Shown piece after piece: positions 1 through 53,053 of a DNA stretch of 64,000 bases. Position numbers and translations under genes: made by a program. The stretch is from Candidatus Omnitrophota bacterium. GTDB lineage: Bacteria > Omnitrophota > Gorgyraeia > Gygaellales > Profunditerraquicolaceae. Positions within the stretch are counted from its first letter, which is position 1. Each line of letters opens with the position of its first letter. The stretch covers positions 490,041 to 554,040 of the forward strand of contig JAKLGJ010000001.1 of assembly GCA_022710715.1 (NCBI GenBank). The letters run 5' to 3'. The notes below the pieces were generated by a model. The model was not told where the DNA came from, searched no databases, and saw nothing but the letters and a program-made list of their open reading frames with translations.

Positions 1-231
1 TTCTTTCAATACCAGCGTTTCTTCGTCGATCCAGTTGATGGTGATGTTATCCAGCTGTATCTTCCATCTGGTGCGGATGGTATTGTGGACTTTATGAATG
101 ATGCTGGCTTCTTTGATGCTGGGGATGTAGGCGGGGAAATCGGAAATTTTGGTGAGCAGTCTGATAACGCGCCATTTTTCGCTGGGAATGATGCGCCAGA
201 CTTTTACTTCCACCAGACCGTTATTCTGCAT
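1..231 (-). CDS. SRPBCC (polyketide cyclase/dehydrase, RatA/COQ10-like) family protein, N-terminal fragment; gene continues beyond window start
   Basis: Minus-strand translation from ATG ~231 gives MQNNGLVEVKVWRIIPSEKWRVIRLLTKISDFPAYIPS..., typical START/SRPBCC N-terminus; overlaps plsC stop. Confidence 0.45.
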   Translation of the reverse strand, partial: MQNNGLVEVKVWRIIPSEKWRVIRLLTKISDFPAYIPSIKEASIIHKVHNTIRTRWKIQLDNITINWIDEETLVLKE

Positions 232-836: not shown

Positions 837-1838
837 TTAATCCGGAATCTCGATTTCAAACCCGTGCATGGCGGCCATATTGGCGATATCTTCCATTTTA
901 TCCATGTTGACGTTCTCTCCTAAAGAGAAATTCACGCATTTGTCTTCCAGCGCCAGCAGCATGGCTTCAGCCATGGGGGCGTAAATGGCGTGGTCCGGGA
1001 TCCCCTGATGCAGGCTGATTTTCTGGCCGAGCGGCAGCTTGATGATTCCGCAGTCAAGCACGGTCAGATCTTTGCGTTGTCTGGCTTTTTCCGCCACATG
1101 TTTGAATACCGCGGCGTCGCAGAGTATCGTTTCGGGTTTCACGTCGTTCATATTGAACAGCACACTGGGGCCATTATAAGAGTTCAGGATGATATCCGCC
1201 TGTTTGATCGCTTTGGGCGTGTCTTGCTCGATTTCTATGGGGATGGTATTCGTTTTTCTAAGCAGATCACGCAGGGAATCGAGTTTTTCCGTGGGACCTC
1301 CCGAGAGAATGATCTTGCCCACGTGGTCCGCGAGCTTTCTGGCGCAGAGCGAACTGATGGTGTTTGTCGGGCTGAAAATGGTCAGGGTCGCCGTTTTTAA
1401 ATGCAGATGCCTGTCTTTGGCCGTGCGATAAAGCGCTTCAAATATTGACCAGGCGCTGAAACTGCTGCCGCTGGTTATGGCGGTTTTGACATGTTTGTAG
1501 ATCATGGGTTTTTTATCGGTTGCAGCCGAAAAATAACCGGATACCCCCATGATCTGGGCTTCTAGCTTCCGCGCCAGGTATCCCGCGGAAACGATCTTAT
1601 CCAGTATGGTTTCTTCATCTGTTTCAAAAATCTGTTCCGGCGACATGGGGCAGCAGATCAGAAAACCCTGGATTTCCTTGCCGGAGGCGGATTTGAACTT
1701 TTTGATATGGAGTACTTTAAAATCTTTATTCTTGAGGAATGAGGGAACGACAGAATCCGGAAGTATGGTGGTGATCGGCCAGAAATGCTTTACCTGGCGC
1801 ATGCTGGTGGGGTGAAACAAGAAGGCAAATGTTTTCAT
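837..1838 (-). CDS. acyl-ACP reductase-like (COG5322/AAR family) NAD(P)-binding oxidoreductase homolog
   Basis: N-term FLFHPTS and C-term MAEAMLLALE...NFSLGENVNMDKMEDIANMAAMHGF closely mirror cyanobacterial AAR (GHLTS...[36 protein letters not shown].HGF); the AAR catalytic Cys position reads Pro (IYAPMAEA). Confidence 0.55.
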   Translation of the reverse strand: MKTFAFLFHPTSMRQVKHFWPITTILPDSVVPSFLKNKDFKVLHIKKFKSASGKEIQGFLICCPMSPEQIFETDEETILDKIVSAGYLARKLEAQIMGVSGYFSAATDKKPMIYKHVKTAITSGSSFSAWSIFEALYRTAKDRHLHLKTATLTIFSPTNTISSLCARKLADHVGKIILSGGPTEKLDSLRDLLRKTNTIPIEIEQDTPKAIKQADIILNSYNGPSVLFNMNDVKPETILCDAAVFKHVAEKARQRKDLTVLDCGIIKLPLGQKISLHQGIPDHAIYAPMAEAMLLALEDKCVNFSLGENVNMDKMEDIANMAAMHGFEIEIPD

Positions 1839-2078
1839 TTATCCTCTTGCCGCGCGGTTCCCAATAGATTCTTGCCCTGTTTTTTCGATTCCATGGTGTT
1901 AGAAGACACTTTTTGCTTGATCCAGGTTTCGATGTATTTCTTGTGGAATCTCCAGTCAGTTCCGATTTTAAAAGCAGGAATTCTTCCTTCGCGCGCATAG
2001 CGATGCACGGTAAGAGGGTGAATGTGCAGGTAATCGGCTACCTCTTTTGCTGTAAGAATCTCGTTGCTTTTGGACATA
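1835..2078 (-). CDS. excisionase-family (HTH_17/MerR-superfamily) DNA-binding protein
   Basis: LTAKEVADYLHIHPLTVHRYAREGRIPAFKIGTDWRF HTH. Start chosen at MSKSNEIL (ATG ~2078) with GGTGGTGA RBS; alternative upstream starts at 2098/2143. Confidence 0.6.
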
Positions 2079-2280
2079 CTCACCACCTTTTTTGACATGT
2101 CTACGATAATCATATGTATACAGATAAAATTATGATTTGTCAAGATAAATTTATCACAATAGTGGGCTTAAGAGGCTCCAGGAAAGACAAACCGGGTTCT
2201 GCAAGCTTGGGATGCGGCTTGAGAACCCGGCCTGTGCTACTTCTACCCTGAAGGTGCCGGGAAAGGGTTAAGAATGGTCT

Positions 2281-3252
2281 TTAGATCGCTTCCATTGTTG
2301 ATGGCGGTTTGTTGGTGATGTTGTAGGTAACACTCACCACGCCCGGAACTTCAGTGACCAGGCGGCTGGCCAGTTTTTCCAGGATTTCATAGGATATTCT
2401 GGTAGGTTTGGCTGTTCTGGCATCTACGCTGTCCCAGGAGCGGACTTCGATCTGGTAGCCGAACTCTCTCTTTCCATTGCGCATCCCTGTTACCTTGTCA
2501 TTATGCAGGATAGCCATGTGCTGGAAAGCGCCGGTGATGGTCAGTTCTTCTTCCACGATTACCGTGGCCAGGCGCACGGTTTCGATCTTTTCCGGGGTGA
2601 CTTCTCCGATGACCCGGGCTGCCAGAGCCGGGCCGGGGAAAGGCATGCGTTCGAAGATTTCTTTGGGCAGCCCTACTGCTTCCGCCAGTTTGCGCACCCC
2701 GTCTTTGCGCAGTTCTACCAGCGGTTCAATGATCTTATAACCAAAAGCTTCCTGGGGATCGATGCCCAGTTGCTCGAATACATTATGCTGGCGTTTGATG
2801 CCGGCGGCCGTTTCTTCAATATCGGTCAGAATAGTGCCTTGCAGAAGGAACTTCGCTTTGCTGTCTTTGACCAGCTTACTGAATACATCTTTGTAGAAGG
2901 TCTGGGTGATGGCTTCCCGTTTCTCTTCCGGGTCGGTAATGCCTTTGAGCGCGGCGAAGAACTTCTCTTTGGCGTCAATGATCTCGACTTTGACTCCGTG
3001 TTCCTTGAAAATCGCGGCGATACGCTGCGGTTCATCCTTGCGCATGATGCCGTTATCGATGAAGTACGTTTTGAGCCGGTTGCCCAGGGCTTTATGGCCG
3101 AGCATGGTGACGCAGGAAGAATCCACGCCGCCGGATAAGGCGTTGATGGCTGTCCCCTCCCCTACGTTTTTCGAGATATCTTTCGCTTTGGTTTCGATAA
3201 ATGATTTGGGGTCCAGTTCAGTAACTTTGATTTCCGGGTATTTCGCCATCAT
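2281..3252 (-). CDS. guaA: GMP synthase ATP-pyrophosphatase subunit (subunit B; archaeal-type split GuaA)
   Basis: SGGVDSS PP-loop motif and C-terminal GMP-synthase dimerisation region; 323 aa with no GATase domain in the ORF. Confidence 0.8.
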   Translation of the reverse strand: MMAKYPEIKVTELDPKSFIETKAKDISKNVGEGTAINALSGGVDSSCVTMLGHKALGNRLKTYFIDNGIMRKDEPQRIAAIFKEHGVKVEIIDAKEKFFAALKGITDPEEKREAITQTFYKDVFSKLVKDSKAKFLLQGTILTDIEETAAGIKRQHNVFEQLGIDPQEAFGYKIIEPLVELRKDGVRKLAEAVGLPKEIFERMPFPGPALAARVIGEVTPEKIETVRLATVIVEEELTITGAFQHMAILHNDKVTGMRNGKREFGYQIEVRSWDSVDARTAKPTRISYEILEKLASRLVTEVPGVVSVTYNITNKPPSTMEAI

Positions 3253-33608: not shown

Positions 33609-33908
33609 TTATTTTTTGAAGATCACGTAGAGCAGCGCGAGAATCAAGAGGAACGAAACGAGATAAAAATCGTTGAAGTAGATGAAATCGAACAGCTTGT
33701 CCTTCAAAGTGTATTCCTCTGTCCGCGCCGGCACGGTCTTGTTGTGTTTCTTGAATTCCTCGACCTGGTGCTGTTTGAAACGGATATACACTCCCCCGAC
33801 ATTATAGGCCGGGATAGCTCCGGATTCGGCCAGGTCGATGACTTCTTTCTCGGTGATGTTCAACACGTGGGCTACTTCTCTGACCGTCAAGAGCTTGTCT
33901 TCCGCCAT
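33609..33908 (-). CDS. excisionase-family HTH DNA-binding protein with C-terminal transmembrane anchor
   Basis: LTVREVAHVLNITEKEVIDLAESGAIPAYNVGGVYIRF HTH_17 domain plus C-terminal hydrophobic helix FYLVSFLLILALLYVIF. Confidence 0.55.
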   Translation of the reverse strand: MAEDKLLTVREVAHVLNITEKEVIDLAESGAIPAYNVGGVYIRFKQHQVEEFKKHNKTVPARTEEYTLKDKLFDFIYFNDFYLVSFLLILALLYVIFKK

Positions 33909-33910
33909 TC

Positions 33911-34417
33911 TTATCTGCCTATTTTTCCTTCAGCAATCCAGGCGTCGATCGCTTTGCGTTCGAACGTCCAATCGTTGCCCTGTTTGAGCGCGGGGATCCG
34001 TCCGGCATTGGCCCATTCCAGGATGGAATTCATCTCTACTTCCAGATACCGAGCGAGCTCTTCGGCATTAAGCACTTCCGCCAGCATAGAGCATTTTCCT
34101 TCGAATATCGCGCCGGATTCGATACTCAAGCGGACCGGGGAGATATCCCCTTCCACGATGGCGCCCGATTGGAGCAGTAATTCCTGTTTCGCGGTAATCC
34201 TGCCTTTGACCTTGCCGCCGATTACGACTGAATCGCCGCGAATATCGCCCAGAACGACCGCGCCCGGTCCGATAGTCAGGTTGCCTTTTGTTTCGAGATT
34301 CCCTTCAAACTTTCCATTGATGCGCAGGTTGACCGGGTCTTTGAAGGTGAGGTTGCCTTGCATGGAAGCGTCGACATCGAGTATTTTCCCTTCTTCTTTC
34401 TTCGCTTTAAAGGCCAT
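33911..34417 (-). CDS. bactofilin-domain protein fused to C-terminal excisionase-type HTH
   Basis: Beta-helical G-x-V/I repeats (GNLTIGPGAVVLGDIRGDSVVIGGKVKGRITAKQELLLQSGAIVEGDI) then LNAEELARYLEVEMNSILEWANAGRIPALKQGNDWTF HTH. Confidence 0.65.
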   Translation of the reverse strand: MAFKAKKEEGKILDVDASMQGNLTFKDPVNLRINGKFEGNLETKGNLTIGPGAVVLGDIRGDSVVIGGKVKGRITAKQELLLQSGAIVEGDISPVRLSIESGAIFEGKCSMLAEVLNAEELARYLEVEMNSILEWANAGRIPALKQGNDWTFERKAIDAWIAEGKIGR

Positions 34418-40995: not shown

Positions 40996-41120
40996 ACTAT
41001 CCCTCCTTGTAAAAGTATTGTATCGGCGATTGGGGAGTAAGTCAAGTCAAGAAATTAGTGGACAAATCGGGCAGAATAGGTACAATAACATCATTGATTT
41101 TACGAAAGGAGCAATGCGCA

Positions 41121-44100
41121 ATGAGCAAAGGTTCTCTCTATACTAATAAGATTAACTACCACCTTAACAAAGACGGTGAATTTATTATCGAAAATTACAA
41201 TTACGCCAAGCCTCTGGCGAACTTCTTTCCCGGCATTGCCGGGAAATACGGCATTCCCATGTGGGTTTTTTACGTCAACCGCGGGCAGGCGATCAACAGT
41301 TTCGGCACGGACGGTAAAGACTCCGCGATCCTGGAATTCCAGCCTGCCAATAAAGCCTGGCAGACGACTTCTCTCAACGGGTTCCGCACTTTCATCAAGC
41401 TTTCTCAAGCGAACAATGAAATCTTCTATGAGCCGTTCCACGACGGTATCGTTAACCGGTCTTTTGCGATCGCCAATCAGATGGCCATGTCTTCCTGCGA
41501 GCTGCGCCTGGAAGAATCCAACGCTACGCTGGGCTTAAAGACCACGGTAGAATATTTCACTATCCCGCAGGAGTGTTTCGCCGCCCTGGTCAGGATCGTC
41601 ACCATTACCAATACCGCCCGGAAACGCCGTTCGCTGCAGGTGCTTGACGGCTTGCCGCAGATCATTCCCTACGGGATCGCGAATCTCTTTTTGAAGAAGC
41701 TAAGCCGCACCATCGAAGCCTGGATGGGCGTGGAGAATCTCGATACCGGCGTGCCGTTCTACAAGGTTGACGTGGATCCCATCGACCGACCCCAGGTACT
41801 GCATATCAAAGGCGGCAATTTCTATTTGAGTTTTGTCCGGGAAGGCAAGAAAGCCAGAATCATCAAACCCATCGTCGATCCGGATGCGATTTTCGGGCAG
41901 ATCAGCGATTTTTCCTGTCCGCGCGCGTTCCTGGACAAGAAACGCTTTACCTATCCGGCCGGGCAGCAGACTCAATGCAAGACGCCCTGCGGCTTTACTC
42001 CCCTTTCCCTGGATCTGGCGCCGGGAGCATCGCAAACTTTTTGTACGGTGATCGGCCACGCCCGCAATGTCAGGGTAATGAACGCGTCGGTGAAACGCAT
42101 TATCGCTCCCGGGTATCTGGAAGCGAAAAATCAGGCTAACAAACGTTTGATCGCCGAGTTGCAGTCGGATGTCGAGACCGGAAGCAGTTCCTGGGAGTTC
42201 GATTATTACTGCAAACAGACCTATCTGGATAATATCATGCGCGGCGGATACCCGGCGTTGTTCGGTTCCGGCGCCGACGCCAAGGTTTTTTACCTCTACT
42301 CCCGCAAGCACGGAGACCTGGAGCGCGATTATAATAAGTTCCAGATACAGCCGACCTATTTCTCGCAGGGCAACGGTAATTACCGCGACATGAACCAGAA
42401 CCGCAGGTGCGATGTCTGGTTCAATCCCGGTATCAAGGATTTCAACATTATCACGTTTTTCAACCTGCTGCAGTCCGACGGTTTCAATCCTCTGGTGGTC
42501 AAAGGCGCGACGTTCAGCCTGAAAAATAAGGACGCATTCGCCGAACAGCTGCGCCTGATCGCCGCCGAAAAGGATATCGCGTTGATCCTGGGCTTACTGG
42601 AAAAACCGTTTACTCCCGGCCAGGTGATCATGGACATCGAGGAGCATAACTGTAAGCTCAAACTCTCCCACGACGACTTCCTCACCCTGCTCTTCAGCCA
42701 TTCAGTCAAGAATCCGGAGGCTGATCACGGCGAGGGTTTCTGGATCGACCACTGGCATTATAATCTTGATCTGATCGAAAATTTCCTGGCGGTGTATCCG
42801 GAGAAGCTCAAAGAACTGGTCTTCGAGAAGAAAGTATTTACCTTCTACGATAACGATTCGGTAGTCCGGCCGCGCAGCGAAAAATACATACTGCTGGACG
42901 GTCATCCGAAGCAATTACATTCCGTAGCGCATAGTCCGGAAAAGAAAGAGTTGATCGGCGCGAGGCTTTCTTCGCCGCATACCCTGCGCACCGAATACGG
43001 CAAAGGCGATGTTTATACCTGCACCCTGATCAACAAGCTTTTCTGTCTGCTGGTGAACAAACTCGCTTCTTTTGACCCGGCCGGCGCAGGCATCGAAATG
43101 GAAGCGGATAAGCCCAACTGGTTCGACGCGTTGAACGGTTTGCCCGCGCTTTTCGGTTCATCCGCCTGTGAAACATTCGAACTCAAACGGCTGATCCTCT
43201 TTATCCGGGACGCGTTACGCGTTTCCGGGGTACAACAGTTCAGCCTGACCGAAGAAATATACGATTTCCTGCAGGGGCTGACTGCCGCATTGCGCGATTG
43301 GGAGCGCTCCAACGATAAGAATCGGGATATGCTGTATTGGGATGCCAGCGCCACCCTGAAAGAGGAATACCGGGCCAGGACTACCTTCGGCTTCAAGGGC
43401 GGTGAAAAACAGGTTTTTGCCGGAGATATGCCGGCGGTGCTCGAACTCGCTTTGAAAAAGACCGACAGCGGCATAGCTAAAGCGCGGGACGAAAAGAAAA
43501 GCCTTTATTACGGCTATTTCATCAATGAAGTCACGGCTTTCGAGAACATCGACGCAACCCGCATCCGGCCGACTCAATTCGCGCAAAAACGCGTTCCTTT
43601 GTTCCTGGAAGGGCTGATGCACGCCATGCGCCTGACCGAAGACAAAGAACACGCGCATGCCATTTACAAAGCGGTTAAAACCAGCGAGCTGTACGATAAG
43701 GAATTGCAGATGTACCGGGTTACCGCCTCCCTCGCTTCCATGCCGGAAGAAATCGGCCGGTGCACCGCTTTTACCCCGGGCTGGCTGGAGAATCAGTCGA
43801 TCTGGCTGCATATGGAGTATAAATACCTGCTGGAGTTGTTGCGTCAGGGAATCTATGAGGATTTCTTCGCGGATTTCCGGAAAGTGCTTATTCCTTTCCT
43901 GAAACCCGAGCGTTACGGCCGCAGTATCCTGGAGAATTCTTCTTTTCTGGTAAGCAGCGCTTTTCCGTATAAACAATTGCATGGCAACGGTTTCGTTGCC
44001 CGGCTGTCCGGTTCGACCGTAGAATTCTTGAGCATGTGGTTATTGATGAATCTCGGCAGGCAGCCGTTCTTCCTTAATGATAAGCAGGAATTGAACCTGC

Positions 44101-44363
44101 GTTTCGCTCCGGCTTTGCCCGGATGGCTTTTCGACAAAAAAGGCAAAACGTACCGCTTCACCCTGCTGGGCCGCATTCCGGTGGTCTATCATAACCCGCT
44201 GTTGAAGGATGCCTTCGGCAGCCAGGGGGTAAAACCGGTTAAAATCACCCTTAACTATAAGGATAATAAGAGCGTAACTATCCTTTCCGATACCTTATCT
44301 GTCTCGTACGCGCATCAAGTGCGTAACCTGGAAGTTACCTCCATCAAAGTTGATTTGGCTTGA
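41121..44363 (+). CDS. large cytoplasmic (alpha/alpha)6 glycoside phosphorylase/hydrolase-like protein (GH94/cellobiose-phosphorylase-like, tentative)
   Basis: 1080 aa, no signal peptide; NWFDALNG resembles GH94 DWNDGLN general-acid motif; other candidate catalytic stretches GNGNYRDMNQN and GFWIDHWHYNLD. Start set at MSKGSL with AAAGGAG RBS. Confidence 0.35.
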   Translation: MSKGSLYTNKINYHLNKDGEFIIENYNYAKPLANFFPGIAGKYGIPMWVFYVNRGQAINSFGTDGKDSAILEFQPANKAWQTTSLNGFRTFIKLSQANNEIFYEPFHDGIVNRSFAIANQMAMSSCELRLEESNATLGLKTTVEYFTIPQECFAALVRIVTITNTARKRRSLQVLDGLPQIIPYGIANLFLKKLSRTIEAWMGVENLDTGVPFYKVDVDPIDRPQVLHIKGGNFYLSFVREGKKARIIKPIVDPDAIFGQISDFSCPRAFLDKKRFTYPAGQQTQCKTPCGFTPLSLDLAPGASQTFCTVIGHARNVRVMNASVKRIIAPGYLEAKNQANKRLIAELQSDVETGSSSWEFDYYCKQTYLDNIMRGGYPALFGSGADAKVFYLYSRKHGDLERDYNKFQIQPTYFSQGNGNYRDMNQNRRCDVWFNPGIKDFNIITFFNLLQSDGFNPLVVKGATFSLKNKDAFAEQLRLIAAEKDIALILGLLEKPFTPGQVIMDIEEHNCKLKLSHDDFLTLLFSHSVKNPEADHGEGFWIDHWHYNLDLIENFLAVYPEKLKELVFEKKVFTFYDNDSVVRPRSEKYILLDGHPKQLHSVAHSPEKKELIGARLSSPHTLRTEYGKGDVYTCTLINKLFCLLVNKLASFDPAGAGIEMEADKPNWFDALNGLPALFGSSACETFELKRLILFIRDALRVSGVQQFSLTEEIYDFLQGLTAALRDWERSNDKNRDMLYWDASATLKEEYRARTTFGFKGGEKQVFAGDMPAVLELALKKTDSGIAKARDEKKSLYYGYFINEVTAFENIDATRIRPTQFAQKRVPLFLEGLMHAMRLTEDKEHAHAIYKAVKTSELYDKELQMYRVTASLASMPEEIGRCTAFTPGWLENQSIWLHMEYKYLLELLRQGIYEDFFADFRKVLIPFLKPERYGRSILENSSFLVSSAFPYKQLHGNGFVARLSGSTVEFLSMWLLMNLGRQPFFLNDKQELNLRFAPALPGWLFDKKGKTYRFTLLGRIPVVYHNPLLKDAFGSQGVKPVKITLNYKDNKSVTILSDTLSVSYAHQVRNLEVTSIKVDLA

Positions 44364-44368
44364 TTTAT

Positions 44369-44428
44369 AGGGACGTTCCCCAAGGTACCACCCCTGTAAC
44401 CAGGGGTGGTACCTTGGGGAACGTCCCT
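44369..44428. repeat. perfect 28-bp inverted repeat (hairpin, 4-nt loop TAAC) 5 nt after the stop of the 1080-aa gene; arms are copies of a 27-nt element also at 53022-53050
   Basis: AGGGACGTTCCCCAAGGTACCACCCCTG-TAAC-CAGGGGTGGTACCTTGGGGAACGTCCCT read directly; no T-tract follows. Confidence 0.9.
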
Positions 44429-44612
44429 AATATATATACCCGTGGGCTTGAAATCTGTACATTTTGTGTTATACTTAAAGTGTAATAAGCGAACTTTGAC
44501 AGATCAGTTCCTACTGATAAAGGCTAACTAGCAGTAATGCTGGGGCGCAAAGCGACAGTTCTTCTGTTTGTGCAGAAGAAGGCTGCGTTACCAAAGAGGA
44601 CGTATTCCTGAA

Positions 44613-44641
44613 CCCAAGGATATCTCTCTTGGGTTTTTTTG
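44613..44641 (+). terminator. intrinsic terminator-like hairpin (CCCAAG..CTTGGG + T8)
   Basis: Stem cccaag/cttggg followed by ttttttt. Confidence 0.6.
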
Positions 44642-44648
44642 TTCTCTA

Positions 44649-44708
44649 CCCCGGTATTCTGCCTGTCTGCCCATTCGGGCAGACAGAACCTGTTGCCGGG
44701 GTTTTTTA
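44649..44708 (+). terminator. second intrinsic terminator-like hairpin immediately upstream of the small ORF RBS
   Basis: Nested stem CCCCGG...CTGTCTGCCC-ATTC-GGGCAGACAG...CCGGGG followed by TTTTTT. Confidence 0.6.
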
Positions 44709-44721
44709 TTGAGAGGTTGCA

Positions 44722-44988
44722 ATGAACGAACATGACGAAAAAAATCAGCGCGTGGTGACTTTTTTGAACCGGGATGAGGTCGATTTCCTGGATAAACTGG
44801 GCAAAGACGCTCTGTTTTCCAGCGGCTCCAAGCTCTCCCGCGCCAAGCTGATCGCCTGGTTGATCGATATGCTTAAAGGTTTGGGGATTGACGGCAAGGA
44901 TCTTAAGTCGGAAAAAGATCTGGAAGCTCGGGTCCTGGGGGTGTTGAAACAGATTTCCGAACAAAAAGAAAGCTACCCGCCACGGTAG
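44722..44988 (+). CDS. small hypothetical protein, possibly ribbon-helix-helix-like DNA-binding
   Basis: GAGAGG RBS 5 nt before ATG; QRVVTFLNRDEVDFLDKLGK resembles an RHH beta-strand/helix start; 88 aa, Lys-rich C-terminus. Confidence 0.4.
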   Translation: MNEHDEKNQRVVTFLNRDEVDFLDKLGKDALFSSGSKLSRAKLIAWLIDMLKGLGIDGKDLKSEKDLEARVLGVLKQISEQKESYPPR

Positions 44989-45193
44989 ATGCGTAAGAAA
45001 GTCGAGGCCCTGGGGAGGGGAATATTTGGGGTCACTGGATTACCAGGGGTCAGCCTGGGATTGATTCAGGGGGCAGTAGATTTAAGCGTTACGGGGATGG
45101 GGTCCCCGACCACACCAGCCACGGTTAGCAATGCATGATGGACAGCCCGGAGGTAGGGCTCAAACTTGCAACGCCACCAGCCACGGTAGAGTT

Positions 45194-45220
45194 TCATTGT
45201 GCGAGAGCCATCGAAAGGTG
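45194..45220 (+). terminator. intrinsic terminator-like hairpin upstream of the 45256 gene
   Basis: AGAGCCA-tcgaaagg-TGGCTCT followed by TTTTTA. Confidence 0.5.
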
Positions 45221-45255
45221 GCTCTTTTTATCACTCAACTAAGGAGGAATGACTG

Positions 45256-46182
45256 ATGCGTAACGTACTTCTGGCCGCAGTCCTGGCAAGTGTTTTGTGT
45301 TCTTGCGTATACGCTGAACAAGCCACTAAAATGCTGGTAGAAACACCGCCGCAGGAAACGATATTCGTCGCTGAAAACGAAGCGCAGGTGCCTGCTGCCC
45401 GCTATCCCAAATTCGCTGAATTTTCCGGGGATAATCCTAACTGCGAGGCGTATTTACAGACCGATTATTCCGGTTCGGGTGATGAAGCCGACGGAATCGC
45501 CCAGAACGGTTTGAGCCAGGCTCCCTTGAACCTGCGCAGCAAGATGGGGTCGGGATCCGCTACCGGCTCAAAGATGCAGTTTGTCTCGATTAGCGAACAG
45601 GGCAGCAACAAGCCGTTCGCCGTCGACAATTACCAGATCCCTGCGGAGTATCGCAAGACCGCCAAGCTGCTGATCAGCTGGACGGTGCGTATCGAAGGAT
45701 GGGAAACTCCCGGCATGAACATCAGCCCGGGATTATGCAGCAACTGGTATGGAACGTCCATACAGGAATTCCCTGCCAACGACGTCAAGCTGGGGTTGTT
45801 CATTACCGATCATAATCAAGAAGTCCGCAAAGGCGCGGAAGGTTCTTTGACCATTCCTCCCGGCCCGCCGCAGGAGATTATTCAGGTTCCTCCTCCTCCG
45901 CCAAGCCCAAACGTGCCAAGCAATGATGGAAGCTCTCAACCCGCGAATTCTGACTGGGGACCGAACAACGGCGCGCCTCCCTTCGATCTCTCGGATCCGG
46001 TTATCAGCGGCAGTTACCTGTTGAGCCCTTCAGATTTCGAAAACGGGGAATTTCCCGAGGTCATCAGGCGTATAGAGATCAAATGGCAGAATCAGACGTC
46101 GCAGATTCTGGTTTCTCCGGCAAAAATGCGCACCCTTACGATCATGCTTATGCCGACGGGCAAGGAGAGTTCGGGGAATTAG
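45256..46182 (+). CDS. secreted Pro-rich hypothetical protein
   Basis: AAGGAGG RBS; signal peptide MRNVLLAAVLASVLCSCVYA; PPGPPQEIIQVPPPPPSPNVPS linker. Confidence 0.55.
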   Translation: MRNVLLAAVLASVLCSCVYAEQATKMLVETPPQETIFVAENEAQVPAARYPKFAEFSGDNPNCEAYLQTDYSGSGDEADGIAQNGLSQAPLNLRSKMGSGSATGSKMQFVSISEQGSNKPFAVDNYQIPAEYRKTAKLLISWTVRIEGWETPGMNISPGLCSNWYGTSIQEFPANDVKLGLFITDHNQEVRKGAEGSLTIPPGPPQEIIQVPPPPPSPNVPSNDGSSQPANSDWGPNNGAPPFDLSDPVISGSYLLSPSDFENGEFPEVIRRIEIKWQNQTSQILVSPAKMRTLTIMLMPTGKESSGN

Positions 46183-46245
46183 GCGTGTAGCGGGGTTATC
46201 CGACCGCAATGCGAAAGAGCCGTCCTTAGCGACGGCTCTTTCATT

Positions 46246-46560
46246 TTATTCTATTTTTACATCCGTGGAGAAACTGGCATTGTCCGGCGCAAGATTAACC
46301 GTGAAGGACAGGTTGCTGTAGGCGGAGTTCTTGTGCTTGCGCACGTGGCCCAGCTCAACGGTCTGGGTAATGTTGCGGTCCCATAACGTTTTGGACCTGA
46401 CTCCCAACTGTCCCCATTCCAGGCTATGCATAACGGCATTGCCGGTGACCGTGTTCCTGAAATCCGTTTCCACCAGGCTGTGCACGTGGCTGATCGAAAG
46501 GAAAAATGCCACTATGATTGAAGAAATAATGGTTAATATGCCTAAGAGTAATCCGATCAT
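46246..46560 (-). CDS. small membrane protein, last gene of pilin-like operon
   Basis: Hydrophobic N-terminus MIGLLLGILTIISSIIVAFFL; 4-nt start/stop overlap with upstream pseudopilin gene. Confidence 0.4.
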   Translation of the reverse strand: MIGLLLGILTIISSIIVAFFLSISHVHSLVETDFRNTVTGNAVMHSLEWGQLGVRSKTLWDRNITQTVELGHVRKHKNSAYSNLSFTVNLAPDNASFSTDVKIE

Positions 46561-47204
46561 TTGACCACATCGGTAAACCAGAGCCGAAAACCGTCGATTT
46601 TGGCGATCTTTTTCGGCAATCCCGGTACCGCCTTTTTGCCCGTACTTTCAGCAGAAATAGTGACGACCAGAAAATCAGGCTCATTCTCGATCTCAGCCTC
46701 GAATTTCCTGCGGAAATATATTCTGGGTTTGAATTTGCCTTCTACCAGGATGAAATCAATAGATTGTCGTCCGGTCGAACTCACCACCGTGCTTAGCGGT
46801 CCGTCTGATTTGCGCAAGATCAGGTTGCCGCCGGTATCGATGCAATACCGGTAGAGAGCGTTATCAGTGCGGGTGTCGGGCGTAACGGCATTGATATTGT
46901 TTTCGCCTTCGAAAGCGAATTCGGTTTTCATTTCAGTTTCTTGATCCGCGGAGAATACCGAATCAGGGGCGATGGCGATGGCGCTGACACAGCGGCGCTG
47001 AATGTCGTCCAGTGCGTTGTTGATCTGCAGGTACATATTGTAGCGCTCCGCATAGACAGTAATCTGCCTGGAAGCAAAATTCAGCAGCGTGAAGACAGCG
47101 CCGACAACCACGACCCCCATGATCATCCCGATGATCAGCTCGATGAGGGTGAACGCTTTACGGTTTGTAGTCCCTGGCAGTCTTGGATTCATAGGCGACC
47201 GCAT
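46557..47204 (-). CDS. pseudopilin-like protein with prepilin-type N-terminus (Ala at -1)
   Basis: NRKA|FTLIELIIGMIMGVVVVGAVF: T4P/T2SS class III leader with Glu+5 but Ala instead of Gly at -1. Confidence 0.6.
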   Translation of the reverse strand: MRSPMNPRLPGTTNRKAFTLIELIIGMIMGVVVVGAVFTLLNFASRQITVYAERYNMYLQINNALDDIQRRCVSAIAIAPDSVFSADQETEMKTEFAFEGENNINAVTPDTRTDNALYRYCIDTGGNLILRKSDGPLSTVVSSTGRQSIDFILVEGKFKPRIYFRRKFEAEIENEPDFLVVTISAESTGKKAVPGLPKKIAKIDGFRLWFTDVVK

Positions 47205-48141
47205 TTATGGAGATCTCCTTGAGTGTTACTTTGCCTTCCACGAGATATTTGTCCGCATAGAACCTGTTCACTGTGTTGATATCTTTGCACCATTGCACCG
47301 TCATCGTATGCGGGCCCGGCGGGACAGTATCCATTCCGAAACTGACGCTGATAAACGGCTGGGTTAAGATCGGGGTGCGGCTGACCGGCCCTACGGGAAC
47401 GCCGTCAAGCAGAAAACGGGTCCAGATCGTAGCATGCGGCAGCGCCTGTTCGATGGTGGTTTTACTCGCTTTGACCACAAGATTGACCATGATCAGTAAA
47501 TCCTTGGGGACTTTAAAATCAAACGTCAGCGCAGCCGGAGGAATTATTTCATAATCGCCGTTTCCGGGGACTGTACTGTCAGGCAGATTGAGCTGGGTGC
47601 GGGTCGCCTGAGAGAGCGCGAATTCGTTTATCCAGGCCCCCGCAGGCACTGCCGGGGTCGATGCGTCATCGGGGTCATATTCTTTATTGACCGATTCGGT
47701 ATGGATATAGGGATACGGCATGGTGTTTTTCAGGCGGATTTCTTTCCGCGCACCGCCAGGATCGGCATAAGAAACATTAAGGGTCAGGTTTTTATAGGGG
47801 ATTTCAACCGGGGTGGTGGGATTTTTCAAGGTGCCCGGGGTGACGTCCATGGTCCAGCTGAAAACCAGCGCGTCGCTATAGTCCGGTTCATTGAACTGCC
47901 ATTGTCCCTGATACGTCCCCGGTTCCAGGGCCGCATCGTAATAGGACCTGGCCATGTATTGTTTCATCTTGAGGGCTGCAAAGCTGACGGCGCGGGATTT
48001 ATACTCTGCCTGTTTGAGGTTGGTAAACCCCCCCACCAGCGCGGATACGACAAAAACTGCCACCAGGGAGAAGATCACCACTACGACGATGATCTCCAGA
48101 AAGGTCATAGCTTTTGTACGGGATGAAAGGCGCATGCTCAT
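47158..48141 (-). CDS. pseudopilin-like protein with prepilin-type N-terminus (Ala at -1), 327 aa
   Basis: RTKA|MTFLEIIVVVVIFSLVAVFVV leader-like segment with Glu+5; large C-terminal domain. Confidence 0.55.
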   Translation of the reverse strand: MSMRLSSRTKAMTFLEIIVVVVIFSLVAVFVVSALVGGFTNLKQAEYKSRAVSFAALKMKQYMARSYYDAALEPGTYQGQWQFNEPDYSDALVFSWTMDVTPGTLKNPTTPVEIPYKNLTLNVSYADPGGARKEIRLKNTMPYPYIHTESVNKEYDPDDASTPAVPAGAWINEFALSQATRTQLNLPDSTVPGNGDYEIIPPAALTFDFKVPKDLLIMVNLVVKASKTTIEQALPHATIWTRFLLDGVPVGPVSRTPILTQPFISVSFGMDTVPPGPHTMTVQWCKDINTVNRFYADKYLVEGKVTLKEISINAVAYESKTARDYKP

Positions 48142-49502
48142 TGCCTGTTGCGCAGGATGATAAGTTCCGCCCAGCTTAATTCCATATGCATATTCTGGTA
48201 GTCTGACGGCGGGATAAAGTAATAGACGACAACGGTGTATTTTCTGCTGCTTTTAAGTTTATCTTTCGGCACGCTGGTCAATCCGTTGATGGAGAAGCTC
48301 GAACGCATCGAGCGGGCATGGAACGGGCTTTGATGAATAAGCGTCCTGCTCGTATCAGAGTCCGGGTCTCCTTCGAAGACTTTAATCATCGAATAAAAGA
48401 GGATATCCTTGAGCGGGTCGATCTCGTTGCGCAGAGGGCATTCGGCCTGCAATTGCCAGATGATCGATACTTTTTCGTTGCTCTTGGCTACGAAAGAGTA
48501 CGTCAGTGCGGTCTCATCGATAGGTTCAAAACAGTGTTTGGCGGTATCCGCATTGGTAATGAACTCATTATATTGCCTGATAGTTTCCTGGCATCCGGGA
48601 AGCGTGAAATTGCGGCACTGTGTGTTATTGATACGGGTTTCGCAACTGAGGCATACCTGTATGCCCATGCCGTTGCACAGGTCTCTGCGGCAGCAATCCA
48701 CTCCTCTGCGGCATTCTTCCCATTGTGTGGTGTAGTCGTGGCACGCCTGGACGTACTGACGGAAGTTCGCAGTCGGGGAATATTTAAAACATAAAGGTGG
48801 TTGGCAGTATTCCACGTCAGGGTCGATCGGCTCAGTCGGTTTAGCCGGCGGCGGATCTTTGGGATCGGGCGGCGGCGGCGGTGGATCCAGCTTATCGATG
48901 TCGTAATACGGTTCGACAGGACAGCTGCCTACGGTTGCGCAATTGATGTGGCAGAAGGGTTGCGGTTCGTAATCGTCTTCCGGGCAATACCAGAACCCGT
49001 CACGGCTTTCGCACGAGCCGTTGGGTGCCGGAGGGTTAGCCGGGCAACCGCGCTGCTGGCAGTGCGGTATACCTTCAGCGCAGGGATTGGTGATCGCTGC
49101 CGGACAGGTGACGGCCGGGCAGTCGTTGACGTTGAACGGCACATCCGCGCAGTCATATATGCTGTTTTCGAACTTTGTGCAACGCCGGTACATCGAACCG
49201 TCGGGATAGAAAACCAGGCAGCAATCAGGGCAGGACCGCCACAGCTGCATGCAGTAATTACAGTTCTGCATATCGATCAGGAACTGGTTTTTGCAGGCGG
49301 TCGATTCGTAGAGCTTTAACGGCGGGGAAAAATTCTTTCGCACGGTTTGCATCGAATGATCGCGGGGGATATATTTGATGGTGGTTTCTGATTTTTTTTC
49401 TGCCAGCGCATCATGAGCGCCTGCCAGGCATGCGCAAAAGAAAACAACCGCCATCGTGAGTCTCCGACCTGCGATAGCGGCTGTAGGTTTTCTCATCAAC
49501 AT
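48138..49502 (-). CDS. secreted cysteine-rich protein with poly-proline linker (candidate tip adhesin)
   Basis: Signal peptide; ~50 Cys in first ~300 residues (CNYCMQLWRSCPDCC, CPAVTCPAAITNPCAEGIPHCQQRGCP); DPPPPPPDPKDPPPAKPTEP linker; 4-nt overlap with downstream pseudopilin. Confidence 0.55.
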   Translation of the reverse strand: MLMRKPTAAIAGRRLTMAVVFFCACLAGAHDALAEKKSETTIKYIPRDHSMQTVRKNFSPPLKLYESTACKNQFLIDMQNCNYCMQLWRSCPDCCLVFYPDGSMYRRCTKFENSIYDCADVPFNVNDCPAVTCPAAITNPCAEGIPHCQQRGCPANPPAPNGSCESRDGFWYCPEDDYEPQPFCHINCATVGSCPVEPYYDIDKLDPPPPPPDPKDPPPAKPTEPIDPDVEYCQPPLCFKYSPTANFRQYVQACHDYTTQWEECRRGVDCCRRDLCNGMGIQVCLSCETRINNTQCRNFTLPGCQETIRQYNEFITNADTAKHCFEPIDETALTYSFVAKSNEKVSIIWQLQAECPLRNEIDPLKDILFYSMIKVFEGDPDSDTSRTLIHQSPFHARSMRSSFSINGLTSVPKDKLKSSRKYTVVVYYFIPPSDYQNMHMELSWAELIILRNRQ

Positions 49503-49716
49503 GAACCCTCGGTGTGCGTTACGAGTATCTTCAATAAAGTACGCTGGTGGACTGCTGTTGATGAAAAAATTCTATCATAACCTTTCTCTTTTGCAAGCAA
49601 TTAATTGAAAGTAAGCGTGTTATTTGTTGATCTTTATGTCCGAAGTCAGGCTGGTGTTGCGGAAATCCTGCTCTACCAGCCCCTGCACGTGCGATATGGC
49701 GAAGGTGCAACAATTT

Positions 49717-52700
49717 TCAGTTAATGATGATCGCGTTGGTGAACGCGGTCTGCTTGCCCTGTTTGTCGAACCCGAAGAAGCGTATGCGCAGTCTCTTGGC
49801 GATGAACTCGGAATTAAAGGTCATGGACAGGTAGGTGCCGTCCGCGGAGATCATCAGCGGGTCCAGGTCCCAGAACTCTGTTTTATCGTCATAGGTCACT
49901 TCCGCCCAGAAATCGTTGAGTTGTCCGGGATACAGGTGTCCCCCGCCCACAAAGTCGATCTTTACGTAGCCGGTAGAGTCCAGAGTCGCGGTGGCCGGGA
50001 TCACGGGCATGGTCACCAGGGCCGGCGGGTTGTTCACGGTGATGGCGATGAGGTTGGACATGCCGGTTTGCACATTGCTGGTGTCGAACGCGTAGAAACG
50101 CATCTGCACTGTTTTATTGTGGAATTCCGGTCCGAATTCCATGGAGATCGACCTGCCGTCCGCCGCAAGCATTCCCGGATTGAGGTCCCAGTAATAGGTT
50201 TGATTATCGTAGGTCACCTGCGCCCAGAGGTCGCTGATCTGGCTGGCCAGGAGCGTGCCGTTGGAGAACGCGATCGATATCTTGCCGTTGACGTCCGTAG
50301 TCCCAGCGGAGGGTATCTGCGGGATGGCCAGGACGGTGGTCAGCGAGTGCACGGTGATGGCGATGGGATTGGAGAACCCGGTCTGCACGTTGTTCGCGTC
50401 GAAGGCGTAGAATTCCATGGTCACTGTTTTTCCGTTGAAATCGGGGGTGAACTCCATGGTCAGGGAATGCCCGTCTTCGGCGATCATCCCCGGATCGAGG
50501 TCCCAGTAAAGCGTCCGGCCGTCATAGGTCACCCGCGCCCAGAGATCCCGGATCTGTCCGGCGTCGAGCGTTCCGCTGGAAAACGGGATGACGATCTTTC
50601 CCTGATTGTCGGTGGTCCCGGTGGACGGGATGACCGGCATGGTTACACTCTGGGGGTTGGAATGTACGGTGATGGCGATGGGATTGGTGAATCCGGTCTG
50701 GACGTTGTTGGTGTCGAAGGCGTAAAACTGCATGGTCACGGTCTTGCCGTCGAATTCAGGCGTGAATTCCATGGTTACCGATTTTCCGTCCGCGGCGAGC
50801 ATTCCCGGGTTAAGATCCCAGTAACGCGTCTGGCCGTCGTAGGTCACCTGCGCCCAGAGGTCGCTGATCTGGCTGGCCAGGAGCGTGCCGTTGGAGAACG
50901 GGATGACGATCTTTCCCTGGTTGTCGGTAGTTCCGGTAGACGGGATCACCGGCATACTGATATTCTGCGGGTTGGAATGCACGGTGATGGTGATGGCATT
51001 GGAGAATCCGGTCTGCACGTTGTTGGTGTCGAAGGCGTAGAATTTCATGGATACGGTTTTGCCGTCAAATTCCGAGCCGAATGCCACGGTCACGGACTTT
51101 CCGTCCGCGGCGAGCATCTCCGGATTGAGGTCCCAGTAATGCGGTTCGCCGTCGTAGGTCACTTCTGCCCAGAGGTCGTTGATCTGGCTGGCCAGGAGCG
51201 TGCCTTCATTGAACGGGATGACGATCGTGCCTTGAGTGTCGGTAGTCCCGGTGGCGGGAATGACCGGCATGGTCAGGCCCGTAGAGCTTGAATGCACGGT
51301 GATGGCAATGGGATTGGAGAATCCGGTCTGCACGTTGCTCTTGTCGAACGCGTAGAATTCCATGGAGACGGTTTTACCGTCGAACTCGGAGCCGAATTCC
51401 ATGGTCAGGGATTTACCGTCCGCGGCGAGCATCGCCGGGTCGAGATCCCAGTAGTAGGTTTTACCGTCGTAGGTCACCTGGGCCCAGAGATCGTTGATCT
51501 GACTGGCTAAGAGCGTGCCGCTGGTAAATGAAACGACGATCTTGCCGGTCGGATCGGTGTTGCCGGTTGCCTGTACGGTCGGCATGGTCACTATCGAAGT
51601 CGACGGCGTCACTTTGAAGGTGAGCTGGTTGCCTACGGTGGTTTGCGCGCCGGTGGAAGCGGAATAACCGTACAATTGCATGGTTATCTGCTTGTTGTTG
51701 AATGCGCTGTCAAAGACCATGGAAAAGGTTCTTCCGTCCGAGGAAATCATCGATGCGTCCAGGTCCCAGTACTCGGTTTTGCCGTCATAGGAAACGATGG
51801 CCCAGAGGTCGGATAACTGCGACGGCAGCATCGGGCTGCTGAAGGTCGCGGTGATCTTGCCGTTGAGGTCGGTTTCCGCCGGAACGGTAGCCGAAGGCAT
51901 GGTCAGGCTGCCGGATGATGAAACGGTGAACGTCACCGGGTTGCTGTAATTGGTCTGCGCGCCGTCGCCGGCAGCGTAGCCGTACAGTTCCATGGTCACC
52001 TGCTTGCCGTTGAATTTGGGGTCGAATTTCATGCTGAACGTTTTTCCATCCGGCGCGATCATCCCGGGAGCGAGCTTCCAGTACTCGGTTTTGCCGTCAT
52101 AGGAGATCTTGGCCCAGAGCGCGTTCAATTGTTCGGGCAGTATCGTTTGAGAAAAAGTGACGGTGATCCGGCCGGCTTCGTTGGTTTGCGCCGGGGCCGT
52201 GCTTGCGGGCATGGTTACGGTGGAGGGTACATTGATTTTGAAGGTGACGTTATTGCTGAAATTGGTCTGCTCGTTCGTCCCCGCGCTGAAGCCGTAGAGC
52301 GCCATCTGGAACGTCGTGCCGTTGAATGAGGGATTGAACTGCATGGAAAATGATTTTCCGTCCGCGGCGATCATCGCCGGGTCGAGCTTCCAGTATTCGG
52401 TTTTGCCGTTATAGGTGACCCGCGCCCACAGCTGGCTTAGATCCGCGGGTAACAACGTGCCCTGGAATGTCAGTACGATCGTGCCGTTGGTGGTGGTAGT
52501 GTCGGGCGCGCTGACTGCCGGGATCGCGGCGTCGGCCGCTGCGGCAGCCGCCAACTCCTGGTTTTTCGTATCTACGGCGTTCTGATTGGCTGCTTCCAGT
52601 TCCGGGCTGTAAACGCCCATTTCTTTCTGGTCCTCCTGCTCCTGCGGCGTCGGGGCTGATTGGGCGAATACCGGTCCGGCGCTAAGGAATAGAGAGATGG

Positions 52701-52737
52701 AAACGCAGGTGAGAATGTGCATGGATAGTTTTTTCAT
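49717..52737 (-). CDS. large secreted tandem-repeat protein (candidate adhesin; ~9 x ~105-aa repeats)
   Basis: Signal peptide MKKLSMHILTCVSISLFLSAGPVFA; repeats with conserved DLWAxVTYDGKTxYWDLxPxMLAADGKSxTMEFxxEFDGKTVxMxFYAFD; middle repeats near-identical. Confidence 0.7.
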   Translation of the reverse strand: MKKLSMHILTCVSISLFLSAGPVFAQSAPTPQEQEDQKEMGVYSPELEAANQNAVDTKNQELAAAAAADAAIPAVSAPDTTTTNGTIVLTFQGTLLPADLSQLWARVTYNGKTEYWKLDPAMIAADGKSFSMQFNPSFNGTTFQMALYGFSAGTNEQTNFSNNVTFKINVPSTVTMPASTAPAQTNEAGRITVTFSQTILPEQLNALWAKISYDGKTEYWKLAPGMIAPDGKTFSMKFDPKFNGKQVTMELYGYAAGDGAQTNYSNPVTFTVSSSGSLTMPSATVPAETDLNGKITATFSSPMLPSQLSDLWAIVSYDGKTEYWDLDASMISSDGRTFSMVFDSAFNNKQITMQLYGYSASTGAQTTVGNQLTFKVTPSTSIVTMPTVQATGNTDPTGKIVVSFTSGTLLASQINDLWAQVTYDGKTYYWDLDPAMLAADGKSLTMEFGSEFDGKTVSMEFYAFDKSNVQTGFSNPIAITVHSSSTGLTMPVIPATGTTDTQGTIVIPFNEGTLLASQINDLWAEVTYDGEPHYWDLNPEMLAADGKSVTVAFGSEFDGKTVSMKFYAFDTNNVQTGFSNAITITVHSNPQNISMPVIPSTGTTDNQGKIVIPFSNGTLLASQISDLWAQVTYDGQTRYWDLNPGMLAADGKSVTMEFTPEFDGKTVTMQFYAFDTNNVQTGFTNPIAITVHSNPQSVTMPVIPSTGTTDNQGKIVIPFSSGTLDAGQIRDLWARVTYDGRTLYWDLDPGMIAEDGHSLTMEFTPDFNGKTVTMEFYAFDANNVQTGFSNPIAITVHSLTTVLAIPQIPSAGTTDVNGKISIAFSNGTLLASQISDLWAQVTYDNQTYYWDLNPGMLAADGRSISMEFGPEFHNKTVQMRFYAFDTSNVQTGMSNLIAITVNNPPALVTMPVIPATATLDSTGYVKIDFVGGGHLYPGQLNDFWAEVTYDDKTEFWDLDPLMISADGTYLSMTFNSEFIAKRLRIRFFGFDKQGKQTAFTNAIIIN
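49950..52600. repeat. tandem coding repeats, period ~315 bp (about 9 copies), inside the 49717-52737 gene
   Basis: Protein repeats of ~105 aa read directly; adjacent middle copies nearly identical. Approximate boundaries. Confidence 0.7.
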
Positions 52738-52774
52738 GGGGCCCCCTTTTTTGACTTGTACACGCGATACTTTA

Positions 52775-52795
52775 CAGGTACTATTATACCACTTT
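52775..52795 (-). promoter_or_regulatory. extended -10 promoter (TGgTATAAT) for the repeat-protein gene
   Basis: Minus-strand GTGGTATAAT ~40 nt upstream of ATG 52737; AAGGGGG RBS before ATG. Confidence 0.45.
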
Positions 52796-52809
52796 TTTAA
52801 ACAAGTGAT

Positions 52810-52851
52810 TAATAAAATAAAAAACCAGAACGACCCTTGGTCATTCTGGTT
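52810..52851 (-). terminator. intrinsic terminator (minus strand) between OM-protein gene and repeat-protein promoter
   Basis: Stem AACCAGAA/TTCTGGTT with 13-nt loop, followed on the minus strand by TTTTATTTTATT. Confidence 0.55.
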
Positions 52852-52974
52852 TAACGGCTGGTAACCTCCTTACCAGTTAATCAAGTATAGCATATTTCAG
52901 GGGCGGATGCCAGCAAGCGCGTCTTCCCGGCGGCATGAGAGCGTATCCGGCGGTTCTGTGCGCTCTCCCCTTGC

Positions 52975-53009
52975 ATAAAACAACAGGGGCGCATCGTACG
53001 ATGCGCCCC
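52975..53009 (-). terminator. GC-rich perfect palindrome GGGGCGCATCGTACGATGCGCCCC directly after the OM-protein gene stop
   Basis: 24-nt perfect palindrome followed on the minus strand by TGTTGTTTTATG. Confidence 0.5.
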
Positions 53010-53021
53010 GAAAAAATCTAT

Positions 53022-53050
53022 CAGGGGTGGTACCTTGGGGAACGTCCCCT
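53022..53050. repeat. third copy of the 27-nt element CAGGGGTGGTACCTTGGGGAACGTCCC (single arm)
   Basis: Identical over 27 nt to the right arm at 44401-44427; 4 nt after stop of the 53054-55867 gene. Confidence 0.85.
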
Positions 53051-53053
53051 CTT

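Follow-up and report, generated by a model that had tools for sequence, protein, structure and literature searches.

The stretch of Candidatus Omnitrophota DNA analyzed here, 64,000 nt in full length and called the window below, carries on its minus strand an operon that opens with a conserved promoter and leader. These are followed by the genes for a small HTH_17 DNA-binding protein, a 333-residue protein related to the cyanobacterial acyl-ACP reductase (AAR; ACP, acyl carrier protein), a PlsC-type acyltransferase, and a fusion of an SRPBCC domain with a second AAR. The window was compared with related Omnitrophota loci, which are labeled L001–L037. This report concerns the 333-residue AAR-like protein. 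Judged from the residues that it has lost, the protein is almost certainly inactive in the conversion of acyl-ACP to fatty aldehyde.

The relationship of the protein to AAR was found by profile, sequence, and structure comparison. The TIGR04058 model of AAR matched it with an E value of 1e-22 (80.9 bits; the equivalog cut-off of 449.7 was not reached), and the best NCBIfam match was to PigE's N-terminal domain (E = 1e-28, far under the equivalog cut-off). The sequences of PDB entries 6JZQ, 6JZU, and 6JZZ were matched over residues 49–328 with E values of ~2–3e-14. The AlphaFold model, obtained with 17 homologues, has a pLDDT of 91.7. Using this model, Foldseek returned AAR (6JZY/6JZQ) first with a TM of 0.84 and the TAD domain of the carmabin pathway second with a TM of 0.76; beyond AAR and TAD, the matches were generic Rossmann dehydrogenases at TM ≤0.45. 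The homology to AAR is far beyond chance, the protein belongs by fold and profile to the AAR/PigE-N/TAD (COG5322-type) superfamily, and the modeled structure keeps the three-domain AAR fold. It does not qualify as an AAR proper by score, catalytic cysteine, dinucleotide loop, phosphate pocket, or pairing with the aldehyde-deformylating oxygenase (ADO). No ADO gene was adjacent in the window or in ~30 related loci, and no ADO-specific search was made outside these neighborhoods.

In AAR, Cys294 forms the acyl thioester, and NADPH is contacted by the loop 162-GATGDIG-168, the loop 222-VASM-225, and a pocket composed of R189, R193, and R314 (PMC7089970). The C294S mutant cannot form the thioester; it still holds stearoyl-CoA non-covalently (PMC7089970). 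The equivalent cysteine is invariant in PigE, TAD, and GluTR, that is, in all of the characterized relatives. The segment MFAC294FAEAMLL of AAR corresponds to IYAP288MAEAMLL in the window protein, and, since both proteins share the flanking motif, Pro288 can be assigned to the Cys294 column without ambiguity. The original prediction had named the protein an AAR homologue with Pro in place of the catalytic Cys. Both points were borne out, the homology by the TIGR04058 profile, the PDB sequences (E ~2e-14), and the Foldseek comparison, and the replacement by the HMMER alignment and the MAFFT column. The dinucleotide loop GATGDIG has become SPTNTIS, in which none of the three glycines is left (G162, G165, and G168 are replaced by S, N, and S). 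In the pocket for the 2'-phosphate of NADPH, R189, R193, and R314 are replaced by G181, K185, and E308, with reversal of the charge at R314, and the conserved Pro248 of AAR is a Phe. With these replacements, the AAR-like protein is predicted to be without the means for acyl-enzyme formation or NADPH binding.

An exhaustive profile search gave 3,286 family representatives at E ≤1e-3. The best 150 of these 3,286 were aligned with the word-index matches, AAR, and two paralogues from L001, and 173 sequences were scored. Both the Cys and the full Gly-x-x-Gly-x-x-Gly were found in 62 sequences and neither in 99, and 12 were mixed; the co-loss has a Fisher p of ~1e-32, calculated without phylogenetic correction. 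In a neighbor-joining tree, the window protein falls in a clade of 93 tips, 91 of which are without the Cys and only 4 of which have all three glycines. Approximately 90 Omnitrophota sequence clusters have neither the Cys nor the middle glycine. At least 12 positions that are 81–100% conserved in the Cys-bearing relatives are jointly lost in the clade (His9, Gly100, Gly107, Gly110, Thr158, Gly159, Ile161, Gly236, Pro245, Gly263, Cys288, and Glu302), and the R314 column is Glu or Asp in 74 of the 93 members. The clade has gained residues of its own, namely, Trp130 (100%), Glu134 (99%), Leu164, Lys168, and Lys267, together with a C-terminal helix of the pattern N-x-D-K-L-E-x-I-A. Conservation is kept at the TTG junction motif (G124) and at E291. 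The losses are the trait of a large and essentially Omnitrophota-specific clade, rather than an accident of one gene. Every named member, down to the most divergent, is an Omnitrophota "hypothetical protein"; a protein from Syntrophothermus is a separate case of Cys-to-Ala replacement. A search of the available literature found no description of Cys-less AAR homologues, nor of COG5322 in the Omnitrophota.

The Cys294 column in this clade is occupied by S, A, P, Y, H, Q, R, W, D, F, G, or E, and it varies even between orthologues that are 60% identical. A new catalytic residue would be conserved, and the variability therefore points to drift. It had also been suggested that the protein might act through another nucleophile, contained in an N-terminal LICCPMS motif. 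This suggestion did not hold. C62 is V, I, or M in the relatives, C63 is Cys in 39 of the 93 clade members, and no residue that could serve as nucleophile (Cys, Ser, or His) is invariant across the 93 tips. The lack of conservation rules out LICCPMS as the replacement.

The gene for the AAR-like protein evolves faster than any other in its cluster. For pairs with unsaturated dS, its dN/dS is 0.13–0.18, compared with 0.04–0.10 for the enzymatic neighbors. The mean identity across genome pairs is ~42% for the AAR-like protein, 52–76% for the neighbors, and 65% for the Cys-bearing paralogue. Selection on the gene is relaxed yet clearly purifying. The length of the protein is constant across the clade, and this intact length, together with a dN/dS of ~0.15, rules out a decaying pseudogene. 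What was found is the combination expected of a pseudoenzyme: the catalytic and cofactor residues are lost, and purifying selection, the fold, and clade-specific residues are kept.

The three-domain fold, the TTG junction glycine, the AEAMLL helix, and the C-terminal HGF motif are shared with the cyanobacterial AAR (Synechococcus elongatus, 6JZQ/6JZU/6JZY; TIGR04058; EC 1.2.1.80). The two proteins differ in that their identity is ~24%, that Cys294, GATGDIG, R189, P248, and R314 are replaced, and that the neighbors of the window protein are an HTH_17 protein and an acyltransferase, with no adjacent ADO. The COG5322 thioester-reductase domains of type II PKS-like pathways, such as the PigE N-domain of prodigiosin biosynthesis and the koreenceine reductase-aminotransferase, resemble the present case in that many Omnitrophota loci have stand-alone genes for ketosynthase (KS), ACP, ketoreductase (KR), and dehydratase (DH) proteins. 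However, the PigE and koreenceine domains keep the Cys (Cys296 in PigE) and are fused to an aminotransferase, whereas the window protein stands alone and has neither the Cys nor the cofactor site. The TAD of CarI from the carmabin pathway (PDB 9E4U), the second-best fold match, is an example of the AAR scaffold reused for other chemistry, and phosphopantetheine can also enter its NAD tunnel. In TAD, the Cys is invariant and NAD(H) is bound, whereas the window protein is without the Cys or the residues of the cofactor site.

The positions of the operon features are collected in Table 1. The minus-strand order of HTH, AAR-like, and plsC genes was as originally predicted, and the coordinates given for the latter two were exact. 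For the HTH gene, the prediction was right in gene and strand and one base off at its end (2078), since the gene starts with the ATG at 2077–2075. A GGTGGTG ribosome-binding site (RBS) stands in front of this ATG, and the tblastn matches of orthologues stop at 2077. A longer HTH open reading frame (ORF) from the TTG at 2143 is spurious; its start falls inside the –35 box. The stop of the HTH_17 gene overlaps the start of the AAR-like gene in an ATGA (1835–1838). The gap from the AAR-like gene to the PlsC gene is 22 nt, and the PlsC gene overlaps that of the SRPBCC-AAR fusion by 11 nt. The JGI contig ends at the same left position as the window.

Table 1. Features of the operon, in positions of the window
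Feature	Position	Strand	Basis
HTH_17 (excisionase/MerR-like) DNA-binding protein, 80 aa	1835-2077	minus	PF12728, RBS, orthologue alignment
AAR-fold protein without Cys or cofactor site, 333 aa (predicted pseudo-AAR)	837-1838	minus	ORF, profiles, model
PlsC/LPLAT-family acyltransferase, 197 aa, NHxxxxD and FPEG motifs	221-814	minus	PF01553
SRPBCC (Polyketide_cyc/START-like)-AAR fusion, first 77 codons, continuing beyond the window	1-231	minus	translation, match to L001 7611-9173
Codon CCC for Pro288, AAR Cys294 column	975-977	minus	HMMER alignment to 6JZQ, MAFFT column analysis, sequence read
Codons for S156-P-T-N-T-I-S162, degenerate counterpart of AAR loop 162-GATGDIG-168	1353-1373	minus	alignment
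Sigma-70-type promoter and leader, conserved	2094-2143	minus	sequence, 15-locus alignment

The HTH_17 protein passed the threshold of PF12728 (E = 1e-15, 57.9 bits; threshold 27) and the cut-off of TIGR01764 (45.6 bits; cut-off 28.8). Its homologues form 618 clusters, every one of which is stand-alone and 69–110 aa in length, and its identity across the loci is 67–95%. Two more matches to HTH_17 paralogues, with 36–44% identity to the operon HTH, are found at 33693–34078 of the minus strand. In their surroundings, at ~32–34 kb, the GC content drops to as low as 0.48, and Pfam gave no match for a 238-aa ORF located there; this low-GC patch is possibly a short piece of mobile or foreign DNA.

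The promoter is composed of a –35 box TTGACA (2143–2138), a 17-nt spacer, and a –10 box TATACA (2120–2115), and is followed by the conserved element ATGATTATCGTAGACATGTC (2114–2094). The Shine-Dalgarno (SD) sequence GGTGGTG is located just beyond the leader element at 2087–2081 of the minus strand. A common layout was found in 15 distinct loci: TTGACA, a 17-nt TAGTTTTAcTAG-rich spacer, TATAyA, ATGATTATCGTAaATATGC, an A-rich stretch, and the SD. The mean column identity of this alignment is 74%, and TTGACA, GTATA, and TATC are invariant; identity among the AAR-like proteins encoded at these loci is only 30–50%. The leader element occurs in L001, L003–L005, L007, L008, L011, L014–L022, L025, L030, L032, L034, and L036. 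An Rfam search with the conserved leader gave no match at E ≤1, and elsewhere in the window the leader core was matched only at the limit of 3 mismatches, consistent with chance. The element is probably the operator or the 5' leader of the operon. A perfect 12-bp palindrome, GATAAATTTATC, which abuts the –35 box (2155–2144 of the minus strand), was rejected as the operator; it is genome-specific and is not conserved elsewhere.

In L036 and L037, the HTH gene and the conserved leader are kept and are followed directly by KS-ACP-KS, and no AAR-like gene was found by tblastn within 10 kb. Since the HTH gene and leader are retained there without the AAR-like gene, the HTH/operator unit belongs to the whole cluster, and it can apparently work without the AAR-like protein. 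The gene string at 10001–16500 of L036/L037 also includes an aspartic-protease-like gene and a PEMT/ICMT-type methyltransferase.

Upstream of the operon, between coaX and the HTH gene, is a gene for the C-terminal half of guaA alone (GMP synthase ATP-pyrophosphatase subunit, 323 aa, 2281–3252 of the minus strand). The other loci do not have this gene at the corresponding place, and it has no glutamine amidotransferase subunit gene as a neighbor. Between it and the operon promoter is an imperfect hairpin of ~14 bp (ACAGGCCGGGTTCT ... AGAACCCGGTTTGT, 2191–2236 of the minus strand) with no T-run behind, which may be a transcript boundary.

The PlsC-type protein matched PF01553 with an E value of 2e-27 (95.9 bits; threshold 23 passed) and contains the NHTSFLD and FPEGG motifs. 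Its score of 73.4 bits against TIGR00530 is under the cut-off of 102.95, and it is therefore assigned at the level of the PlsC/LPLAT family only, and not specifically as the housekeeping PlsC. The best NCBIfam match is to the Aas-type acyl-ACP phospholipid acyltransferase domain. In every related locus that has this gene, it is paired with the SRPBCC-AAR gene, which lies directly downstream of plsC and two genes downstream of the AAR-like gene. The SRPBCC-AAR orthologues keep Cys294, GGGGDIG (G162/G165/G168), R189, P248, and R314, and an orthologue matched the TIGR04058 model of AAR with an E value of 1e-47. At least 535 Omnitrophota clusters of this fusion were found. The proteins are very uniform (~520–530 aa; ~60–65% identity), and the named members among the matches listed are from Omnitrophota only. 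The SRPBCC lipid-binding domain is joined to the N-terminal domain; in cyanobacterial AAR, this is where ADO docks and takes over the aldehyde.

The original prediction had the AAR-like protein supply fatty aldehyde or alcohol in partnership with the acyltransferase. The partnership of an AAR with the acyltransferase stands, in that the operon encodes a complete SRPBCC-AAR after plsC. The AAR-like protein itself is unsupported as the aldehyde source, because the Cys, the dinucleotide loop, R189, R314, and P248 are all replaced.

Gene contexts were collected from seven look-ups anchored on the AAR-like protein, a scan of species-representative genomes (24 loci), and three HTH-anchored look-ups, and were annotated by BLAST to Pfam-labeled references and with Pfam/NCBIfam. 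In ~23 of 25 assessable loci, the HTH_17 gene immediately precedes the AAR-like gene, the gap being –4 to +41 nt; in L008, two genes lie between them. The AAR-like gene is the first structural gene of the operon behind HTH_17, and this lipid operon is phylum-wide in the Omnitrophota. Module A (PlsC and SRPBCC-AAR) comes next in the window, L001, L007, L013, L018, L019, L023, L025, L026, and L029, and module B (KR-KS-ACP-DH-KS-KS) in L003–L005, L011, L014–L017, L020, L028, L030, L032, and L034. In L025, module A is followed by module B in one string, with a 7TM-GAF histidine kinase and a response regulator between the two. The genes that follow the AAR-like gene always involve ACP-linked chemistry. 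A dead and an intact AAR paralogue occur in one operon in the window, L001, L007, L008, L009, L013, L018, L021, L023, L025, L026, and L029. No FabG/KS/ACP module is present elsewhere in the window.

The KR of module B passes the FabG equivalog cut-off, the DH passes FabZ, and one KS passes a FabF subfamily model, which leaves an identification as an aryl-polyene cluster unsupported; two KS proteins and the ACP are divergent. Recurrent in the cluster are two to three CrtI-like amine-oxidase flavoproteins, a GMC oxidoreductase, an NAD_binding_4 thioester reductase, a nitroreductase, a PilZ-thioesterase, glycosyl- and lipid A-type acyltransferases, and HD-GYP. The wider cluster extends over 13061–20800 in L025, 10229–20225 in L032, 10231–20231 in L034, and 11024–20999 in L014. 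Enoyl reductase, plsX, fabD, and fabH were not seen in the cluster or in 440 kb of Omnitrophota DNA, a sample biased toward this locus. The candidate ladderane clusters of Kuenenia (anammox Planctomycetes) contain genes for FabF, a non-canonical FabF, FabZ, ACP, CrtI-like, and radical-SAM proteins. The Omnitrophota cluster overlaps this composition in part, but no radical-SAM genes were seen in the Omnitrophota loci, and the resemblance is a lead only.

In several genomes, AbiEii/AbiEi toxin-antitoxin pairs lie within the lipid cluster or next to it (L003 4190–5435, L011 16337–17780, and one more locus). Farther along the window is a run of large ORFs of up to 1,101 aa without a significant Pfam domain (41058–44363 and 45256–46182 of the plus strand; 47158–49502, 49717–52737, and 53054–55867 of the minus strand). 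The sole matches within this run (41058–55867) are a borderline phage Gp30.7 and a single TPR.

Tentatively, and with less than even confidence, we propose that the AAR-like protein is a pseudo-reductase that has been kept as a non-redox accessory to the downstream enzymes, for which it would bind acyl-ACP or the acyl chain. The protein would still dock acyl-ACP, or the acyl-phosphopantetheine arm, in the AAR cleft and acyl tunnel without turnover, and would hold, select, or present the acyl chain. The enzymes served would be the acyltransferase and the true reductase in the window, and the FabG/FabF/FabZ-like enzymes elsewhere. If any fatty aldehyde is formed by the operon, this would be the work of the SRPBCC-AAR paralogue and not of the dead AAR. 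The non-covalent binding of stearoyl-CoA by the C294S mutant of AAR is a precedent for an AAR that binds substrate without the Cys. Several points weigh against this proposal. We infer the binding of acyl-ACP from the fold and the gene context only. The middle glycine is also absent from 7 of 69 Cys-bearing paralogues, and its loss alone is therefore no proof of lost nucleotide binding. The AAR-like gene is absent from the otherwise similar cluster of L036/L037 and is therefore not indispensable. Finally, an accessory role is hard to separate by sequence alone from a regulatory role or from a role as a heterodimer partner.

The regulatory role would make the dead AAR a ligand-sensing partner of HTH_17, which senses acyl-ACP or a lipid intermediate and modulates the binding of the HTH protein at the leader. 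NmrA is a dead short-chain dehydrogenase/reductase that controls a transcription factor, and FapR and the acyl-ACP-responsive FabT follow a comparable logic. The 80-aa HTH protein has no effector domain of its own, its gene immediately precedes that of the dead AAR in nearly all loci, whichever module comes downstream, and the ATGA overlap in the window and the short gaps in ~23 loci suggest translational coupling. The highly conserved promoter and leader suggest a dedicated operator, and a pattern of fast yet constrained evolution is typical of binding proteins. However, L036 and L037 retain the HTH gene and the leader with no AAR-like gene within 10 kb, two genes split the pair in L008, and a 7TM-GAF histidine kinase with its response regulator is already encoded in the cluster. 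A Rosetta-stone fusion of HTH and AAR was not found in the 618 HTH homologue clusters or in the best 150 AAR-like representatives. We consider a sensor of this kind unlikely.

It is likewise doubtful that the dead AAR is a new non-redox enzyme of acyl-ACP, either an off-loading transacylase/thioesterase or a PlsX-like acyl-ACP:phosphate transacylase that feeds PlsC. In the fapR-plsX-fabD-fabG-acpA operons of Firmicutes, PlsX is a soluble, acyl-ACP-handling protein of ~330 aa that is encoded straight after the regulator. The AAR-like gene occupies this plsX slot of the fapR-plsX-fab operons; the likeness is one of operon position only, with no relationship in sequence or fold. Many clusters with module B show no thioesterase or off-loading enzyme, and no plsX, fabD, or fabH was seen in the 440 kb, but this DNA is biased toward the locus and the absence of plsX says little about whole genomes. 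The invariant charged residues E134, E291, K168, and K267 and the dN/dS of ~0.15 speak for such an enzyme. On the other hand, there is no conserved nucleophile and the Cys294 column is hypervariable, although such chemistry may need none, and a core enzyme would not usually evolve faster than all other genes of its cluster.

Less probable still is that the dead AAR would be the non-catalytic heterodimer partner of a Cys-bearing AAR, tuning its chain length or specificity. The chain-length factor (KS-beta) of type II polyketide synthases is a ketosynthase paralogue without the active-site Cys that is kept in the same cluster. ApeO-ApeC is an aryl-polyene example of the same logic. The window protein is like the chain-length factor in logic only, the folds being unrelated and the active paralogue often not adjacent. 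The dead and intact paralogues in one operon, in the window and 11 other loci, speak for such a pair, as does the dimerization of the related TAD domain via its N-terminal domain. They are countered by ~13 loci in which a FabG/KS/ACP module directly follows the dead copy and no Cys-bearing AAR lies within 10 kb, and by the description of cyanobacterial AAR as non-dimeric. That the protein is still a thioester reductase, using another nucleophile or direct hydride transfer, is very improbable, since the kept fold and the conserved TTG junction motif and E291 are set against the loss of the Cys, the dinucleotide loop, P248, R189, and R314, the unconserved LICCPMS cysteines, and the finding that C294S alone abolishes thioester formation in AAR.

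Every characterized member of the fold family (AAR, the PigE reductase domain, TAD, and GluTR) depends on a cysteine. Here, a large clade under purifying selection is without the cysteine and the nicotinamide cofactor site, and the scaffold therefore has a second, non-redox use. We regard the AAR-like clade, on the sequences compared, as a pseudoenzyme branch of a small and mechanistically well-defined family, located in a conserved and uncharacterized lipid cluster of the Omnitrophota. Some proteins of the clade are labeled by JGI as "fatty aldehyde-generating acyl-ACP reductase". Such a label would wrongly give Omnitrophota the capacity for aldehydes, alkanes, or ether lipids on account of the AAR-like gene; the proper gene for an inference of aldehyde capacity is that of the SRPBCC-AAR fusion. 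A further and improbable possibility is that the Cys-less clade has a new acyl-ACP-handling function, either as a transacylase (off-loading or PlsX-like) or as a sensor of acyl-ACP, that would gate a phylum-specific pathway of FabF-like ketosynthases, CrtI-like desaturases, the SRPBCC-fused aldehyde-forming reductase, and the dedicated acyltransferase, and that this pathway would lead to a new class of Omnitrophota membrane lipids, possibly polyunsaturated or ether-type. A conserved lipid gene cluster has now been defined, from promoter to kinase, in an uncultured and often ultra-small PVC phylum.

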